Shown here in pieces: positions 793 through 9,973 of a stretch of DNA of 9,973 nt. Within the stretch, counting starts at the first letter, position 1, and the number at the start of each line of letters is the position of its first letter. Origin of the DNA: a virus (lineage: Duplodnaviria > Heunggongvirae > Uroviricota > Caudoviricetes); IMG/VR virus record IMGVR_UViG_2645727991_000023, positions 1-9,973 of that record. One strand, written 5' to 3'. The translations under genes were made by a program, and so were the position numbers. The notes under the pieces were generated by a model. That model saw only the letters and a program-made list of their open reading frames with translations, did no database searches and was not told the origin of the DNA.

Positions 793-1539
793 TTACTTCA
801 CAACCCTCATATTGCTGACATTTGGACGCCAGCTATCCCAGTTAAACGTCACCCATCGACCACCGTTCATGGTCATGCGGTCCATAATCCTCTCACCAAG
901 AAGTGTACTCATTGCGGCATGATTCAGGTTTGTTAACATCCCGACACTGCACAGTGATGCTGTCCGGCGATCAATTATCTGGTGCAATACCACCTGCTCG
1001 TTTTTCGTCTCCCGCTGAACGCCTATTTCATCCAGGACCAGCAAATCAACACCGCAAAGCTCCTGTAAAAATTTTTCCCCGGATTTGCCGTTGTCGTAGC
1101 TGTCATGCAACACGCTCATGACATCAGACACGGTGACGATAATCACGCTGCGCCCCTTCACCATCAGCCGGTTACCCATCGCCGCTGCAAGGTGATTTTT
1201 CCCGGTGCCGGTTTTACCGCTGAACACAAAATTCGTGCACCCGGTCATCAGTTCGTCAGCTATGGATTTGGCCTGGCTCAGCGCGTATTTTTGCCCGTCG
1301 TTCTGCACCTGATAATTTGCAAACGAGCATTTGCTGTGCAGAGGCTGGATGCCCGAACGATTCAGGATTTTTTCCACCCGCAACTGGCGATTCTGGCGGT
1401 TAATCTCCTCGCTGCGTTTTCGTCCTTCAGCAAGTTGCCATTCCCGCCACTCCTCCACCGTCCGGTACGGTGGAACCGCCCCCTGTGGTGCAAGTCTGCG
1501 AATACGTTCAAGAACCCCAACTGCCGCAATGTTTTTCAT
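793..1539 (-). CDS. DnaC/IstB-like AAA+ replicative helicase loader (lambda P analog)
   Basis: The 248-aa ORF has Walker A GKTGTGKN and Walker B LLVLDEIG. Its ATG at 1539 lies 6 nt after the stop of the upstream O-like gene, which suggests translational coupling. Confidence 0.9.
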   Translation of the reverse strand: MKNIAAVGVLERIRRLAPQGAVPPYRTVEEWREWQLAEGRKRSEEINRQNRQLRVEKILNRSGIQPLHSKCSFANYQVQNDGQKYALSQAKSIADELMTGCTNFVFSGKTGTGKNHLAAAMGNRLMVKGRSVIIVTVSDVMSVLHDSYDNGKSGEKFLQELCGVDLLVLDEIGVQRETKNEQVVLHQIIDRRTASLCSVGMLTNLNHAAMSTLLGERIMDRMTMNGGRWVTFNWDSWRPNVSNMRVVK

Positions 1540-1545
1540 GACACG

Positions 1546-2628
1546 TCACCCCCTGAATCCCGGCGGTATTTCAGTGTCCGGTTCAGAAATGTGATTCACG
1601 CAACGCTGGTTGTTCGTGCCGCTTACCGGGAGCAACCAGGGGTTTTCAAAATTCCGGTCCGGCCCAAAAAACGTCGTCGCTCGCTGAACAAATTCCGTTC
1701 CCGCTTTCCCGGTCGCCGCCAGGTATCTCGCGTAACGCCTCACACCATCCAGCATGGTCTCTGGTGGCACCCCCTCGCGCAATCTGGCCTTCCAGGCACT
1801 GAATGCGGATTTCTTCGGGTTTGCTCCGGCACGCAACGGGTACTCCCGCCAGACCTGTTCGAACACATCCGGATAATCCACTCGTCCCACAGACTGCCCG
1901 GTGTTTTCCGGGACTACCCGATCGGCTTCCCGCTGAATGGCGGAATCGGCTTCAGGCTGCTGCAGTTGGTGTGATTGCTCCGGCCTTGCGGTCATCACCT
2001 GCTGCACAGCGCCCGAATCGGCTTTCAGCGCATACGCTGAATCGGCTTCCGGTGTCGTGCCTGCTGGCTGACCAAGATTGACGGTCTGAACATCCCCTGC
2101 CTGGTTCGTGGCGTTTTTTACGCCATGGACCATAGTGTTTTGATCTTCTTGATCTGTATCTTTATCTGTATCTTTATCTGTATCTTTATCTGTCGTGACT
2201 CGTCGTGACATGTGCGTGACATTTCGTGACGCGCCGTGACAATCGCCATTTTGTTCCCACTTTCTTTCCCTCTCTCGCTGCGCCCTCTTGCGCTCTGCAG
2301 GAGATTTTGCGGTTTGCGAAATATTGCCGTTGTCCTCTTTAAGCACCTGGCGTTTTTCCCATCCAGTGATTAAATCACCATCAAGTACCCGCCCCTGCAT
2401 CGTCTGCAAAATTGAATCAATTACCTCTTCTGTCACGTCGAGCGCACTTGCCAAATCTTCTGTCGTGACATCAATGTGACCTCGCGTGACATTTCGTGAC
2501 GCGCTCACCAGGAGGTGGATATACACTGCCATCACTGTTGCAATTGGCTGCCCTGACACCCTGGCAATTGTTCGCCACTTAGGGTCATTTGGCATGTCAT
2601 GCCATAATCTGAGCCAGGCGTTAGCCAT
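1546..2628 (-). CDS. Replication initiator, lambda O / YdaU-like
   Basis: The long ORF sits immediately upstream of the helicase loader. Its N-terminus (WLRLWHDMPNDPKW...) is typical of prophage replication proteins. The gene contains iteron-like repeats and an AT-rich tandem repeat, as lambda O does. I prefer the ATG at 2628, which has AGAGG 5 nt upstream, over the GTG at 2634 used in the ORF track. Confidence 0.75.
   Translation of the reverse strand: MANAWLRLWHDMPNDPKWRTIARVSGQPIATVMAVYIHLLVSASRNVTRGHIDVTTEDLASALDVTEEVIDSILQTMQGRVLDGDLITGWEKRQVLKEDNGNISQTAKSPAERKRAQRERERKWEQNGDCHGASRNVTHMSRRVTTDKDTDKDTDKDTDQEDQNTMVHGVKNATNQAGDVQTVNLGQPAGTTPEADSAYALKADSGAVQQVMTARPEQSHQLQQPEADSAIQREADRVVPENTGQSVGRVDYPDVFEQVWREYPLRAGANPKKSAFSAWKARLREGVPPETMLDGVRRYARYLAATGKAGTEFVQRATTFFGPDRNFENPWLLPVSGTNNQRCVNHISEPDTEIPPGFRG
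2152..2193. repeat. Tandem 12-bp repeat ATCTGTATCTTT, 3.5 copies, in frame (encodes DKDT repeats on the minus strand)
   Basis: Exact copies lie at 2152-2163, 2164-2175 and 2176-2187, with a half copy at 2188-2193. The repeat is AT-rich and directly abuts the first CGTGAC cluster. Confidence 0.9.
2194..2240. repeat. Iteron-like cluster 1: five CGTGAC hexamers phased at 10-11 bp (putative origin element)
   Basis: CGTGAC starts at 2194, 2204, 2215, 2225 and 2235. The cluster contains the 21-bp block GCGTGACATTTCGTGACGCGC at 2214-2234. Confidence 0.5.
2464..2504. repeat. Iteron-like cluster 2: CGTGAC/TGTGAC hexamers phased at 10-11 bp (putative origin element)
   Basis: Hexamers start at 2464, 2475 (TGTGAC), 2485 and 2495. 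The same exact 21-bp block occurs at 2484-2504, exactly 270 bp from the copy in cluster 1. An inverted GTCACG lies at 2432-2437. Confidence 0.5.
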
Positions 2629-5166: not shown

Positions 5167-5219
5167 TTTCTGGTGACGTTTGGCGGTATCAGTTTTACTC
5201 CGTGGCTGCTCTGCCGCCC
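5167..5219 (+). ncRNA. dicF: DicF small RNA (Hfq-dependent sRNA that inhibits ftsZ translation)
   Basis: The sequence TTTCTGGTGACGTTTGGCGGTATCAGTTTTACTCCGTGGCTGCTCTGCCGCCC matches the 53-nt K-12 DicF sequence as I recall it, apart from about one base. It is followed by T5. It sits between ydfC-like and dicB homologs, 174 nt upstream of dicB, as in Qin. Confidence 0.85.
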
Positions 5220-5863: not shown

Positions 5864-7738
5864 ATGAGTAAAGTCTTTATTTGCGCCGCCATTCCGGACG
5901 AACAGGCAATAAAGGAAGAAGGTGCAGTCGCTGTAGCTACTGCCATTGAAGCCGGTGATGAACGTCGCGCCCGCGCAAAATTTCACTGGCAATTCCTGGA
6001 ACATTATCCGGCTGCTCAGGACTGCGCTTATAAATTTCTTGTCTGCGAGGATAAACCCGGTATACCCCGCCCTGCCCTCGATTCCTGGGATGCTGAATAT
6101 ATGCAGGAAAACCGCTGGGATGAGGCGTCTGCTTCCTTTGTCCCGGTTGAGACTGAATCAGATCCGATGAACGTCACTTTTGACAAGCTGGCCCCTGAAG
6201 TACAGAACGCTGTCATGGTTAAGTTCGACACATGTGAAAACATCACCGTTGATATGGCGATTGACGCGCAGGAATTACTGCAAGAAGACGTGGCTACCTT
6301 TGACGGGCACATCGTTGAAGCACTGATGAAAACGCCTGAAATTAACGCTATGTATCCGGAACGCAAACTGTTCGCTATCGGATGGGTTAAACACAAATGT
6401 AAGCCGGGTACCAAATGGCCCGAAATTCAGGCTGAATTACGTAACTGGAAAAAACGGCAGGACGCAGAGCGCAAAGAGACTGGAAAATACACGTCTGTTG
6501 TTGATCTTGCCCGCGCCAAAGCCAACCGACAGCACACTGAAAACCCAGCAGAAAAAATCCCTCCTGTAACTGCCGCCATTCATCGCGAATACAAGCAGAC
6601 ATGGAAAACCCTGGGCAGGGAGCTGGCCTACTATCTCTGGCCTGGTGATGCGGATGCCGGAAACATTGACGGCAGCATCCTTCGCTGGGCTAAAAATGAA
6701 GTTATCGCCAGAGATCGCGAAGACTGGAAGCGCATCTCCGCATCAATGCGCAAACAACCTGATGCGCTTCGCTACAGCCGCCAGACTATTTTTGGCCTTG
6801 TCCGTGAACGCCCGATCGACATTCACAAAGATCCCGTGGCACTGAACAAATACATCACTGAATACCTGACTACAAAGGGCGTGTTTGAAGATGACGAAGG
6901 AACAAATCAGGGCACAGCTAATACTCTCTCGTCGCCAGTACCAGAAACTGACGCAGTGGAAACGGCAATTCAGGACAACGAAAAAACCGAATGCAAAGTG
7001 GAAGTCGAATCATCTGTAGAGCGTGAGGGGCCGTTCTACTTCCTCTTCAGCGACAAGGATGGCGAAAAATACGGTCGTGCAAACAAACTTTCTGGTCTGA
7101 ATAAGGCGCTGGCTGCAGGGGCTACTGAAATCACGAAAGAAGAATATTTTGCCCGCAAAAACGGTACATACTCAGGTTCACAACAAAATACTGGTGCATC
7201 TGACACGATCGCACAACCGGAGCCGGTAAAAGTTACCGCTGACGAAGTAAACAAAATTATGCAGGCAGCCAATATCAGCCAGCCTGACGCCGATAAGTTG
7301 CTTGCTGTATCACGTGGTGAATTTGTTGCAGGGATTAGCGACCCGAATGATCCGAAATGGGTGAAGGAGATTGAAACCCGCGATTCAGTGAATCAGAACC
7401 AGCAAGAAACGGAACAGAACGACCAGAAAGCGGAACAAAACAGCCCAAATGCGTTACAAAACGAGCCAGAAACGAAACAATCCGAACCAGTAGTGCAACA
7501 GGAACCGGAAAAAGTCTGCACCGCCTGCGGTCAGAGCGGTGGCGGCAACTGCCCCGATTGTGGCGCTGTCTGGGCAACGCAACATACCAGGAAACATTCG
7601 ATGAAGAGAATCAGGTTGAAGCTCAGGAGAATGATCCGGAGGAAATGGAAGGCGCTGAACATCCACACAAGGAGAACACTGGCGGCAATCAGCATCACGC
7701 CAGCGATAGTGAAACTGGCGAGGCGGCAGATCCCTTAA
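5864..7738 (+). CDS. ORF as written: YdfE-like N-terminal region with a Q/E-rich linker and a CxxC-N9-CxxC zinc ribbon. The last ~55 codons are probably out of frame.
   Basis: GAGG (5850-5853) lies upstream of the ATG at 5864. The N-terminus MSKVFICAAIPDE...FHWQFLEHYPAAQDCAYKF resembles K-12 YdfE and the N-termini of prophage proteins annotated as exodeoxyribonuclease VIII, as I recall them. The zinc ribbon CTACG...CPDCG lies at 7517-7561. Confidence 0.6.
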   Translation: MSKVFICAAIPDEQAIKEEGAVAVATAIEAGDERRARAKFHWQFLEHYPAAQDCAYKFLVCEDKPGIPRPALDSWDAEYMQENRWDEASASFVPVETESDPMNVTFDKLAPEVQNAVMVKFDTCENITVDMAIDAQELLQEDVATFDGHIVEALMKTPEINAMYPERKLFAIGWVKHKCKPGTKWPEIQAELRNWKKRQDAERKETGKYTSVVDLARAKANRQHTENPAEKIPPVTAAIHREYKQTWKTLGRELAYYLWPGDADAGNIDGSILRWAKNEVIARDREDWKRISASMRKQPDALRYSRQTIFGLVRERPIDIHKDPVALNKYITEYLTTKGVFEDDEGTNQGTANTLSSPVPETDAVETAIQDNEKTECKVEVESSVEREGPFYFLFSDKDGEKYGRANKLSGLNKALAAGATEITKEEYFARKNGTYSGSQQNTGASDTIAQPEPVKVTADEVNKIMQAANISQPDADKLLAVSRGEFVAGISDPNDPKWVKEIETRDSVNQNQQETEQNDQKAEQNSPNALQNEPETKQSEPVVQQEPEKVCTACGQSGGGNCPDCGAVWATQHTRKHSMKRIRLKLRRMIRRKWKALNIHTRRTLAAISITPAIVKLARRQIP

Positions 7739-8337
7739 TTAAGGTGAATGGTCATCACAATCTCACATCCACCAGCAGAGCGGGGATTCATCTGATGATC
7801 GACATTGAAACCATGGGAAAAAATCCCAATGCCGCGATTATCTCAATAGGCGCAATATTTTTCGATCCACAAACCGGAGATATGGGACCGGAATTTAGCA
7901 AGACCATCGATCTGGATACTGCTGGCGGAGTTATTGATCGTGACGTCATTAAATGGTGGCTGAAGCAATCACGTGAAGCGCAGTCTGCCATTCTGACCGA
8001 TGAAATCCCGTTAGATGATGCACTACTGCAATTGCGGGAATTTATCGCCGAAAACTCCGGTGAATTTTTTGTTCAGGTCTGGGGAAATGGAGCCAACTTC
8101 GACAACGTGATTTTACGCCGTTCATACGAACGGCAGGGGATCCCCTGCCCCTGGCACTACCACAACGATCGCGATGTACGCACAATCGTTGAGCTAGGGA
8201 AAGCCATAGACTTCGATGCCAGAACAGCTATCCCATTCGAAGGTGAGCGCCACAATGCACTTGATGACGCCCGTTACCAGGCAAAATACGTTTCAGCTAT
8301 CTGGCAAAAACTGATCCCGAGTCAGGCTGATTTTTAA
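7558..8337 (+). CDS. ORF as written: DEDDh (DnaQ-like) 3'-5' exonuclease domain protein. The track's TTG start at 7558 is doubtful, and a possible independent start is the ATG at 7795.
   Basis: The Exo I motif is MIDIETMG, Exo II is WGNGANFD and Exo III is HNALDDARY. The ATG at 7795 has GGGGA 8 nt upstream and lies 57 nt after the upstream ORF's stop. That start would give a 180-aa stand-alone exonuclease. Confidence 0.6.
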   Translation: MWRCLGNATYQETFDEENQVEAQENDPEEMEGAEHPHKENTGGNQHHASDSETGEAADPLIKVNGHHNLTSTSRAGIHLMIDIETMGKNPNAAIISIGAIFFDPQTGDMGPEFSKTIDLDTAGGVIDRDVIKWWLKQSREAQSAILTDEIPLDDALLQLREFIAENSGEFFVQVWGNGANFDNVILRRSYERQGIPCPWHYHNDRDVRTIVELGKAIDFDARTAIPFEGERHNALDDARYQAKYVSAIWQKLIPSQADF

Positions 8338-8406: not shown

Positions 8407-8658
8407 ATGAGCGAAGTAATCATGATTGTCTCTCCCGGTAAATGGGTATCTGAAGAACAGCTAATTGCACTGAAAGGAATAAAAAAGGGAACGCTAAAAA
8501 AAGCCAGAGAAAAATCGTTTATGGAAGGAAGGGAATATAAGCATGTCGCCCATGACTGTATGCCATGGGATAACAGCCCATGCTTTTACAACCTGGAAGA
8601 AATAGATCGCTGGATTGAACGCCAGGCATCAGCAAGACCAAGGCGTCATCTTACTTGA
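8407..8658 (+). CDS. Excisionase-like protein (DUF1233-type Xis)
   Basis: The 83-aa ORF lies immediately upstream of int on the same strand. The segments PGKWVSEEQLIALKGIKKGTLKKAREKSFMEGREYKHV and EEIDRWIE resemble the putative excisionases of this integrase family. An alternative start is the ATG at 8422. Confidence 0.7.
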   Translation: MSEVIMIVSPGKWVSEEQLIALKGIKKGTLKKAREKSFMEGREYKHVAHDCMPWDNSPCFYNLEEIDRWIERQASARPRRHLT

Positions 8659-8677: not shown

Positions 8678-9973
8678 ATGAGAGAAGCTGAAATGAAATA
8701 TCCGACAGGCGTGGAAAACCATGGTGGGAAATTACGTATCTGGTTTGTTTATAAAGGTGTAAGAGTCCGGGAAAATCTTGGGGTTCCTGACACAGCAAAA
8801 AACAGGCGCATTGCAGGTGAGCTACGCGCCTCTGTTTGTTACGCAATAAAAACTGGCGCTTTCGACTATGCAAAACAGTTTCCCGCCTCACACAATCTGG
8901 AAAAATTTGGTGAGGCCCGACAAGATTTAACCATAAAAGAACTGGCTGAAAAATTTCTGGCACTGAAAGAAACTGAAGTCGCAAAAACGTCACTCAACAC
9001 GTACCGTGCCGTCATCAAAAATATTCTGAGCATAATCGGTGAAAAAAATCTTGCATCATCGATTAATAAAGAAAAATTGCTGGCGGTACGTAAAGAGTTA
9101 CTGACTGGATACCAGATCCCCAAAAGTAACTATATTGTTACACAACCAGGGAGATCGGCTGTTACCGTAAATAATTACATGACAAATCTTTACGCCGTGT
9201 TCCAGTTTGGTGTTGATAACGGTTATCTGGCAGACAATCCATTTAAGGGGATCTCACCATTAAAGGAGTCGAGAACCATCCCGGATCCACTTTCGCGGGA
9301 GGAGTTTATCCGCCTTATTGACGCGTGCAGAAATCAGCAAGCCAAAAATTTATGGTGTGTTTCCGTTTATACTGGGATTCGCCCTGGTGAACTCTGTGCG
9401 CTTGGATGGGAAGATATAGTTCTGAAAAATGGAACAATGATAATCAGAAGAAATCTGGCAAAAGACCGTTTTACAGTACCAAAAACACAGGCGGGAACCA
9501 ATCGTGTGATTCACCTTATTAAGCCCGCAATCGACGCTCTCCGGAGTCAGATGGCACTAACGAGACTGAGTAAAGAGCATATCATCGATGTTCACCTCAG
9601 AGAATTCGGCAGAACAGAGAAACAAAAATGTACCTTTGTTTTTCAACCTGAAGTGTCAGCGAAAGTAAAAAATTATGGTGACCATTTTACCGTTGACTCA
9701 ATAAGGCAGATGTGGGACGCAGCGGTAAAGCGTGCCGGAATCCGCCATCGCAAATCGTATCAGTCGAGACACACTTATGCCTGCTGGTCGTTAACAGCAG
9801 GAGCTAACCCGGCATTCATTGCAAACCAGATGGGCCATGCAGATGCGCAAATGGTGTTTCAGGTGTACGGGAAATGGATGTCAGACAATAATAATGCGCA
9901 GGTAACGCTGTTAAATACACAGTTAAGCGAGTTTGCCCCAACCATGCCCCATAACGAAGCGATGAAAAGTTAA
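8678..9973 (+). CDS. Tyrosine recombinase, phage integrase (Rac/Qin IntR/IntQ-like, with an N-terminal arm-binding domain)
   Basis: The N-terminus reads KYPTGVENHGGKLRIWFVYKGVRVRE (DUF3596-type arm domain). The catalytic motifs are YTGIRPGE, SRHTYA and MGHAD, with a tyrosine in VYGKW. The probable true start is the ATG at 8693 (MKYPTG, 426 aa). The stop codon is at the window edge. Confidence 0.95.
   Translation: MREAEMKYPTGVENHGGKLRIWFVYKGVRVRENLGVPDTAKNRRIAGELRASVCYAIKTGAFDYAKQFPASHNLEKFGEARQDLTIKELAEKFLALKETEVAKTSLNTYRAVIKNILSIIGEKNLASSINKEKLLAVRKELLTGYQIPKSNYIVTQPGRSAVTVNNYMTNLYAVFQFGVDNGYLADNPFKGISPLKESRTIPDPLSREEFIRLIDACRNQQAKNLWCVSVYTGIRPGELCALGWEDIVLKNGTMIIRRNLAKDRFTVPKTQAGTNRVIHLIKPAIDALRSQMALTRLSKEHIIDVHLREFGRTEKQKCTFVFQPEVSAKVKNYGDHFTVDSIRQMWDAAVKRAGIRHRKSYQSRHTYACWSLTAGANPAFIANQMGHADAQMVFQVYGKWMSDNNNAQVTLLNTQLSEFAPTMPHNEAMKS

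Follow-up and report, generated by a model that had tools for sequence, protein, structure and literature searches.

Can a gene that encodes a replication initiator also hold, within its own coding sequence, the origin from which its product starts replication? The question is raised by a 9,973-nucleotide stretch of DNA (the window; IMG/VR virus record IMGVR_UViG_2645727991_000023), whose source is an E. coli lambdoid prophage. On its minus strand lies an initiator gene that contains two arrays of a short direct repeat and an A/T-rich tandem repeat, and an earlier interpretation made from the letters alone (the sequence-only reading) had proposed a putative origin there. That proposal is supported by frozen synonymous sites, by a 10-bp phasing that has been kept, by motif switching among relatives, and by conservation of the tandem repeat at the DNA level. 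From these comparisons, and by analogy with known origins, we consider that 2147-2504 is probably the prophage replication origin, placed inside the coding sequence of its own initiator. The parts of the gene are as follows, in window coordinates.

1546..2628, minus strand: replication initiator ('replisome organizer') gene; PHROG 3729 'replication initiation protein', E=6e-254
2245..2628, minus strand: conserved N-terminal domain, amino acids (aa) 1 to ~128; five helices, a beta-hairpin (winged-helix-like) and a basic helix, from the family alignment and AlphaFold
2464..2504, minus strand: hexamer array A; coding-strand GTCACG at 2495-2500, 2485-2490 and 2464-2469, and GTCACA at 2475-2480
2432..2437, plus strand: single inverted hexamer; reads GAC GTG ACA = Asp64-Val65-Thr66
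2194..2240, minus strand: hexamer array B; five GTCACG at 10/11-bp spacing, encoding CHGASRNVTHMSRRVT in the disordered linker
2147..2193, minus strand: GATAMA repeat (GATAAAGATACA) x 3.9, candidate DNA-unwinding element; period 12, 97% matches, encoding (DKDT)n
1546..2146, minus strand: exchangeable C-terminal half, DnaD/DnaT-like; PHROG 1701, E=1.9e-63; swapped among relatives

The repeated motif is CGTGAC on the plus strand; because the initiator gene lies on the minus strand, it is GTCACG on the coding strand. Array B consists of five exact copies starting at 2194, 2204, 2215, 2225 and 2235 (spacing 10, 11, 10 and 10), just as the sequence-only reading had described for 2194-2240. It had counted four more at 2464-2500, of which three are exact (2464, 2485 and 2495); the fourth, at 2475-2480, is the variant TGTGAC, a site that is the exact hexamer in most relatives. 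An inverted copy at 2432-2437 had been overlooked. At this site the Val65 codon is GTG in 18/18 relatives, and the whole CGTGAC is retained in 13/22. We estimated the chance expectation by shuffling the 9973-base window and by a Poisson calculation for the 307 nt of 2194-2500. Shuffled windows held 4.19 +/- 1.88 copies of CGTGAC and never reached 10, and the 307 nt hold eight same-strand copies and one inverted copy, compared with ~0.13 expected (Poisson p ~1e-14). Outside this region the window has one further CGTGAC, at 7939. The arrays, which are ~260 bp apart, share the 21-mer GCGTGACATTTCGTGACGCGC, present exactly at 2214 and 2484 (offset 270) with identity extending on neither side, so that the identical 21-bp block claimed for both clusters is real. 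The twin peptides SRNVT(H/R) are likewise found in the translation, as ASRNVTR and ASRNVTH, and the peptide DKDTDKDTDKDTD also occurs there.

We then compared the window with 67 homologous loci, one genome per species, from Gamma-, Beta- and Alphaproteobacteria and acidobacterial metagenome-assembled genomes (MAGs), with GC contents of 33-69%. A GTCACG subgroup of 25 sequences comprises the window and 24 loci of ~6 kb (host GC 34-69%). In this subgroup, nearly all copies of GTCACG in ~6 kb fall in the two arrays, at nt ~128-159 and ~370-450 of the open reading frame (ORF), and their density is 19/kb in ORF nt 100-520 vs 0.31/kb in flanking DNA. The spacing between neighbours was 10 or 11 bp in 134/150 pairs. 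Conservation of the hexamers relative to synonymous drift in homologues had been set beforehand as a refuting test of the origin proposal, and we examined it in 22 species-level homologues whose loop has the standard length (nucleotide identity between pairs, median 70%). All 22 species keep the hexamers, and synonymous positions are frozen: the frequencies of the commonest codons were 0.91 for GCG, 0.95 for TCA, 1.0 for GTC, ACG, GGT, CAC and a second GTC, and 0.95 for a second ACG. In contrast, 37 other columns with conserved amino acids used 2-6 codons each, the commonest reaching 0.52 on average (Mann-Whitney, p=7e-6), and the proposal passed the test. At Arg49, which lies between two hexamers, the residue is invariant and the third codon base is free.

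The way in which the hexamers are translated points in the same direction. The coding strand of array B reads TGT CAC GGC GCG TCA CGA AAT GTC ACG CAC ATG TCA CGA CGA GTC ACG. Since a 10-bp period moves the frame by one per copy, the single motif is translated in all three frames, as C-H, (x)-S-R and V-T. Frame-rotating hexamers thereby account for the 'invariant' residues of a protein loop and of a disordered linker that is free elsewhere, and in the family alignment linker conservation is restricted to the hexamer-coded residues, CHxxSRxVT.

The A/T-rich repeat behaves similarly. An AT-rich repeat of 3.5 copies at 2152-2193, encoding DKDT, had been reported; it is present and codes for DKDT, and Tandem Repeats Finder places its bounds slightly wider, at 2147-2193 with 3.9 copies. 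The segment has 72% A+T, where the gene's 40-nt windows average 46%, and adjoins array B at 2194. The most A+T-rich 40-nt window of the gene (75%, from 2138) overlaps it, a level reached by 0.4% of the 40-nt windows in the whole sequence. A D-K/D-T repeat stands directly after array B in most family members. On the purine-rich coding strand it is (GATAAA/GATACA)n, replaced in a minority of the family by a polypurine variant such as AGAGAAGAAGAGATAAG. Across the family its codons are GAT in 144/146, AAA in 85/89 and ACA in 49/50 cases, whereas outside the repeat the same ORFs split their Asp and Lys codons about evenly and use ACA for 98/561 Thr codons. The GC content of the repeat is 0.17-0.37 in hosts of GC 0.33-0.69, and GATAAA/GATACA is used even in hosts with 59-69% GC. 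This near-exclusive use of GAT, AAA and ACA together with the low GC content marks the repeat as a DNA signal and not merely a flexible peptide. Its copy number, which had been suspected to vary between strains, does so: 80 near-identical IMG/VR prophages have between 2 and 5.5 units of 12 bp, and their hexamers are constant. Taken as a whole, the sequence comparisons show that selection acts on the DNA of the hexamers and of the repeat, irrespective of what they encode. There is also a slim chance that the invariant GATAMA repeat serves the initiator family for specific recognition in single-stranded form and is not a generic AT-rich unwinding element.

More distant relatives that lack GTCACG have CGAACGC, GTAACG, GTGACG or GGAACGC at the same places and with the same 10-bp spacing, and those with both arrays have one motif type common to A and B. 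The CGAACGC subfamily accordingly has a different loop peptide, SNATERGRTQ, and a different linker peptide, PNAxERxRT. In one subclade (~70% nucleotide identity), Erwinia has GTCACG where Pantoea and Enterobacter have GTAACG; this holds for at least six aligned sites distributed over both arrays, and Pantoea retains one GTCACG as an apparent intermediate. Within the GTCACG subgroup array A is very stable. E. albertii and many E. coli homologue proteins have extra array A hexamers through a 7-codon insertion reading NVTTCHGVSLRGH. The distance between arrays A and B takes values of 240, 258-260, 278 and 350 bp, and a fixed helical phase between them was rejected. Two loci, from a Serratia MAG and from Pantoea, have the same N-domain fused to another downstream part (VYYVATTDGDVVRVGISRNPWAR...) and lack both the usual hexamer arrays and the GATAMA repeat.

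To locate these elements in the protein, we used an AlphaFold model built from the family alignment (mean predicted local distance difference test score, pLDDT, 73.6). The pLDDT was 87-97 over most of aa 11-90 and below 50 in the linker. The modelled N-domain has helices at 2-14, 16-25 and 29-45, a loop at 46-55, helices at 56-63 and 67-77, a beta-hairpin and a basic helix at 110-127, with disorder from 129. In this model, array A encodes ASRNVTRGHIDVT (aa 43-55), namely the end of helix 3 and the following loop, where pLDDT dips, and the disordered linker is the product of array B and the repeat. The loop and the linker would be the places where the protein best tolerates a sequence dictated by DNA, comparable to the AT-rich region of lambda O with its tolerance of in-frame deletions (PMC6022878). 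A fold search with the N-domain model gave weak matches to winged-helix regulators only (E>0.2) and no informative relative.

By analogy with phage lambda (PMC6022878) and SPP1 (PMC6316719), we infer how the initiator would bind and the origin would fire. The N-terminal winged-helix-like domain would bind the GTCACG hexamers cooperatively, and the head-to-tail repeats, one helical turn apart, would align the bound proteins along a single face of the helix. The nucleoprotein complex so formed, which might bridge arrays A and B across 260 bp, would strain and open the adjoining GATAMA repeat (2147-2193), and the exchangeable C-terminal domain together with a DnaC-like loader would load the host's DnaB helicase there. 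The loader gene is directly downstream of the initiator gene:

793..1539, minus strand: DnaC-like helicase loader gene; Pfam IstB_IS21 E=7e-19, NCBIfam PRK12377 506 bits, PHROG 50

In lambda, oriλ lies inside O and has iterons beside a high-AT region that tolerates in-frame deletions; the four iterons are 18-bp inverted repeats, each bound by one O dimer (PMC6022878). The window resembles lambda in that the putative origin lies between the parts coding for the DNA-binding N-domain and the loader-contacting C-domain, in that the initiator sites are directly beside a high-AT region accepting in-frame length changes, and in the gene order cro / cII-like / initiator / loader. In contrast to lambda, its sites are asymmetric 6-bp direct motifs that recur at 10-11 bp and form two arrays with 260 bp between them, one array is inside the coding region of the DNA-binding domain itself, the partner protein is DnaC/IstB-like and not lambda P, and the unwinding candidate is the specific hexamer repeat GATAMA and not a generic AT stretch. 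The lambda ori design invoked by the sequence-only reading therefore holds for the placing of iterons beside an AT-rich region in the initiator gene, but not for the iterons, which are 6-bp direct repeats and not 18-bp inverted ones. Similarly, the term 'O-like' used there suits the position and role of the gene, but a Pfam search with the 362-aa initiator found no family at E<=0.01, Phage_rep_O included. Phage_rep_O was also missing from a relaxed per-member Pfam scan of the family, and NCBIfam gave no significant family for the initiator. Judged by its sequence, the initiator is not a lambda O homologue and is O-like by position and role alone.

SPP1 oriL lies in gene 38 and consists of direct repeats bound by gp38 and an AT-rich unwinding element (PMC6316719), and the organizer G38P, which attaches to these repeats, has a distinct helicase loader as its partner (PMC6316719, PMC5615212). 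The window matches this arrangement at the sequence level, with directly repeated motifs as well as an AT-rich element within the organizer's gene. It differs from SPP1 in that the similarity of its N-domain to the organizer family is below threshold, the repeat sequences are unrelated, and no second array was seen in the window, whereas SPP1 has a second origin, oriR. Short direct repeats in or beside the rep gene are also found in the lactococcal phages TP901-1 and Tuc2009 and in the SaPI islands, whose protein families and hosts are unrelated to those of the window. SaPIs have two sets of short iterons flanking an AT-rich stretch, whereas both window arrays are upstream of the AT-rich element, with B abutting it and none flanking the other side. 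The DnaA-trio and DnaD recognition elements of bacterial oriC are short periodic motifs beside double-strand initiator sites in the melting region. The GATAMA repeat is like the DnaA-trio in directly adjoining double-strand sites, but it has a period of 6, and DnaA and the initiator are unrelated. By inspection of GATAAAGATACA in all registers on both strands, the DnaA-trio itself (3'-[G/A]AT-5' every 3 nt) was rejected, with at best alternate triplets fitting, and the IHF consensus showed no fit either.

Could the repeats instead reflect the needs of the protein alone, with SRNVT as a duplicated peptide, (DK/DT)n as a flexible acidic-basic linker, and the likeness in DNA as a product of duplication and slippage? 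The twin peptides and the exact 21-mer do resemble a duplication, and a flexible linker could vary in length as the DK/DT repeats do. However, a single hexamer yields different amino acids in its three frames, the freezing of synonymous positions is confined to the hexamers, the repeat codons are almost all GAT, AAA and ACA even in hosts of 59-69% GC, and the loop peptides of other subfamilies are unrelated, yet again derive from one repeated hexamer; we find this explanation scarcely credible. That the GATAMA repeat, common to genes otherwise diverged, is mainly a recombination joint, at which cassettes of N-domain plus origin are swapped onto different C-terminal/loader modules, also seems very unlikely to us. 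E. coli prophages and phages are indeed mosaic at the repeat, where matches to the N-half stop at window position 2171 and those to the C-half at 2141, the repeat's edge, and widely differing C-terminal domains follow the constant N-domain. Such a joint is nevertheless compatible with an unwinding role and no replacement for it, and a joint alone needs neither A/T-richness nor a fixed place beside array B.

The remaining two explanations accept the hexamers as DNA sites and assign them differently. If they were bound by another factor, of the host or of the phage, and the initiator gene merely housed them, the sameness of the winged-helix core in subfamilies with different hexamers would be accounted for. 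This is quite improbable, because in Gamma-, Beta- and Alphaproteobacteria and in acidobacterial MAGs the arrays accompany the N-domain, whereas the C-terminal half is exchanged, and a host factor would not account for different motifs in related hosts. Alternatively, the arrays may be protein-binding sites for regulation (autorepression, a transcription roadblock, handcuffing copy control or exclusion of related phages), with the true origin elsewhere. Selection at the DNA level shows that there is a function but not which, two separated arrays would suit looping or handcuffing, and array A is dispensable in some lineages. We nonetheless hold a purely regulatory role to be unlikely, since the conserved, strand-biased A/T-rich repeat downstream beside array B is the standard origin layout (PMC6022878, PMC6316719) and no second hexamer cluster was found in the window or in the ~6-kb loci.

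Several observations weigh against an origin at 2147-2504. In the open-access literature we found no paper on origin firing or protein binding for any member of the family. The N-domain matches PF09681 (Phage_rep_org_N) with E=0.048 and 14.1 bits, below the cut-off of 23.3; this weak alignment runs end to end (aa 5-121 on profile positions 1-116 of 121). The likeness of the copies within one gene could owe something to slippage and gene conversion. Array A is absent from some distant members retaining array B and so is not essential to the design; array B with the downstream repeat would be the core design, and array A an addition. Finally, the GTCACG and CGAACG subfamilies have nearly the same winged-helix core (aa 56-100), although one half of their motif differs. 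ACG is the sole part common to all motif types, and the only segment of the N-domain varying systematically with hexamer type is the loop encoded by array A, along with array B's linker peptide. Either the shared motif half is what the conserved core reads and the remainder is kept uniform otherwise, or specificity resides in the differing, iteron-encoded segments. There is perhaps a slim chance that the iteron-encoded peptides help to read the iterons, so that the iterons and part of their reader would be one sequence forming a self-referential specificity switch. A change in the DNA motif would then automatically alter its reader.

An origin within an initiator gene is a known arrangement, and for this widespread family no description was found. 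Searches of the open-access literature on GTCACG iterons, GATAAAGATAAA and replisome organizers with iterons or direct repeats gave nothing on the initiator family; an older description is possible. Eru typing papers on the replication modules of Shiga-toxin phages make no mention of 'iteron', 'origin of replication' or 'AT-rich', and Eru4 (Shigella phage 75/02) has only the C-terminal half in common with the window initiator gene. What sets the window apart from the known examples is the helically spaced 6-bp direct repeats read in three frames, an array inside the coding region of the DNA-binding domain itself, the coordinated motif switching across subfamilies, and a sequence-specific GATAMA repeat constant across phyla and iteron types. 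An origin at 2147-2504 would locate the origin of a replication module found in over half of complete E. coli genomes, as the initiator gene was matched in 2970/5426 of them. It was also matched in isolated phages, for example Tritos and Evi, and the module is found in Pseudomonas, Aeromonas and Ralstonia phages. The locus is also a clean case of overlapping codes, in which a 10-bp periodic DNA signal imposes C-H, S-R and V-T on a loop and a disordered linker, and its natural variants GTCACG, GTAACG and CGAACGC provide material on how origin specificity changes with a constant binding-domain core. For annotators, it is a warning that a DNA element can lie behind conserved residues or low-complexity DK/DT repeats in a protein. 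A plasmid search for replicons dependent on the initiator gave only 11 matches, the majority being prophages carried by large replicons or records as long as a chromosome or a phage genome.

With regard to the gene product, the ATG at 2628 agrees with the family start MANAWLRLW, and the mechanically called ORF (1546-2634) begins at a GTG at 2634. Close RefSeq relatives carry the name 'phage replisome organizer', and weak matches to PHROGs annotated as 'replisome organizer' were also obtained (PHROG 4880 at 3.6e-7 and PHROG 5968 at 5e-5). The C-terminal half presumably contacts the helicase loader. Its DnaT-like match is weak and confined to the last ~24 aa (NCBIfam E=0.0016, far below the cut-off), and a PDB sequence search with the initiator returned DnaT chains only, through the same ~24-aa tail (E=0.018-0.064). 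PF17948 (DnaT-like C-terminal domain) is matched by 9/31 family members, the window initiator having no Pfam match. The tail (window 1546-1620), ending ...SEPDTEIPPGFRG, weakly resembles the C-terminal tail of E. coli DnaT, and its motif PDxxIPxGF[RK]G is common to family members whose C-domains otherwise differ. The tail may be a short docking peptide.

Further elements were noted around the GATAMA repeat, one of them a palindrome in the window:

2102..2132, no strand assigned: imperfect 13-pair palindrome TGGTTCGTGGCGT / ACGCCATGGACCA with loop TTTTT; single-strand DNA fold -8.7 kcal/mol, z=-3.2

This palindrome is a possible accessory element on weak evidence. A lambda-like palindrome beyond the AT-rich element was rejected as a general feature, as a family-wide scan was at background for most loci, and an Rfam scan of the origin region found no known RNA. 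Two GATC (Dam) sites, 9 bp apart at 2142-2145 and 2151-2154, mark the downstream edge of the repeat with the codons GAT CAA in the E. coli version only; they might connect it with methylation or SeqA control. Five loci (L083, L091, L100, L134 and L143) have a hairpin ~0-30 nt past the repeat, which is absent from the window. Its loop is a near-constant 11 nt, TCACTACGTTC in three loci with one- or two-base variants in the rest, and its arms co-vary (CACCTACC/GGTAGGTG, ACCCACC/GGTGGGT, ATATCC/GGATAT and CCTATCC/GGATAGG). The hairpin encodes a recurring peptide, SLRS, occurs in members of differing iteron types, and may be a third origin element, for example a single-strand initiation or loading site.

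Upstream of the initiator gene are YdaT/CII-like and YdaS/Cro-like genes and a divergent repressor-like gene, and a DUF1627 gene comes after the DnaC-like loader gene. On the plus strand, a full-length Rfam match to the antisense small RNA DicF at 5168-5219 (75 bits vs a gathering score of 48) identifies the window as a Qin/Rac-like prophage early-left region. A RecE-like exonuclease is encoded in two overlapping plus-strand ORFs, 5864-7738 and 7558-8337, matching positions 1-573 and 569-823 of the PHROG 2082 profile; being split in this way, the gene is probably frameshifted. A degenerate 21-bp tandem repeat of 4.3 copies (7390-7480) lies just ahead of the break. The excisionase (8407-8658) and integrase (8678-9973, reaching the window end) genes, both on the plus strand, show that the window covers the prophage from its end through the replication module.

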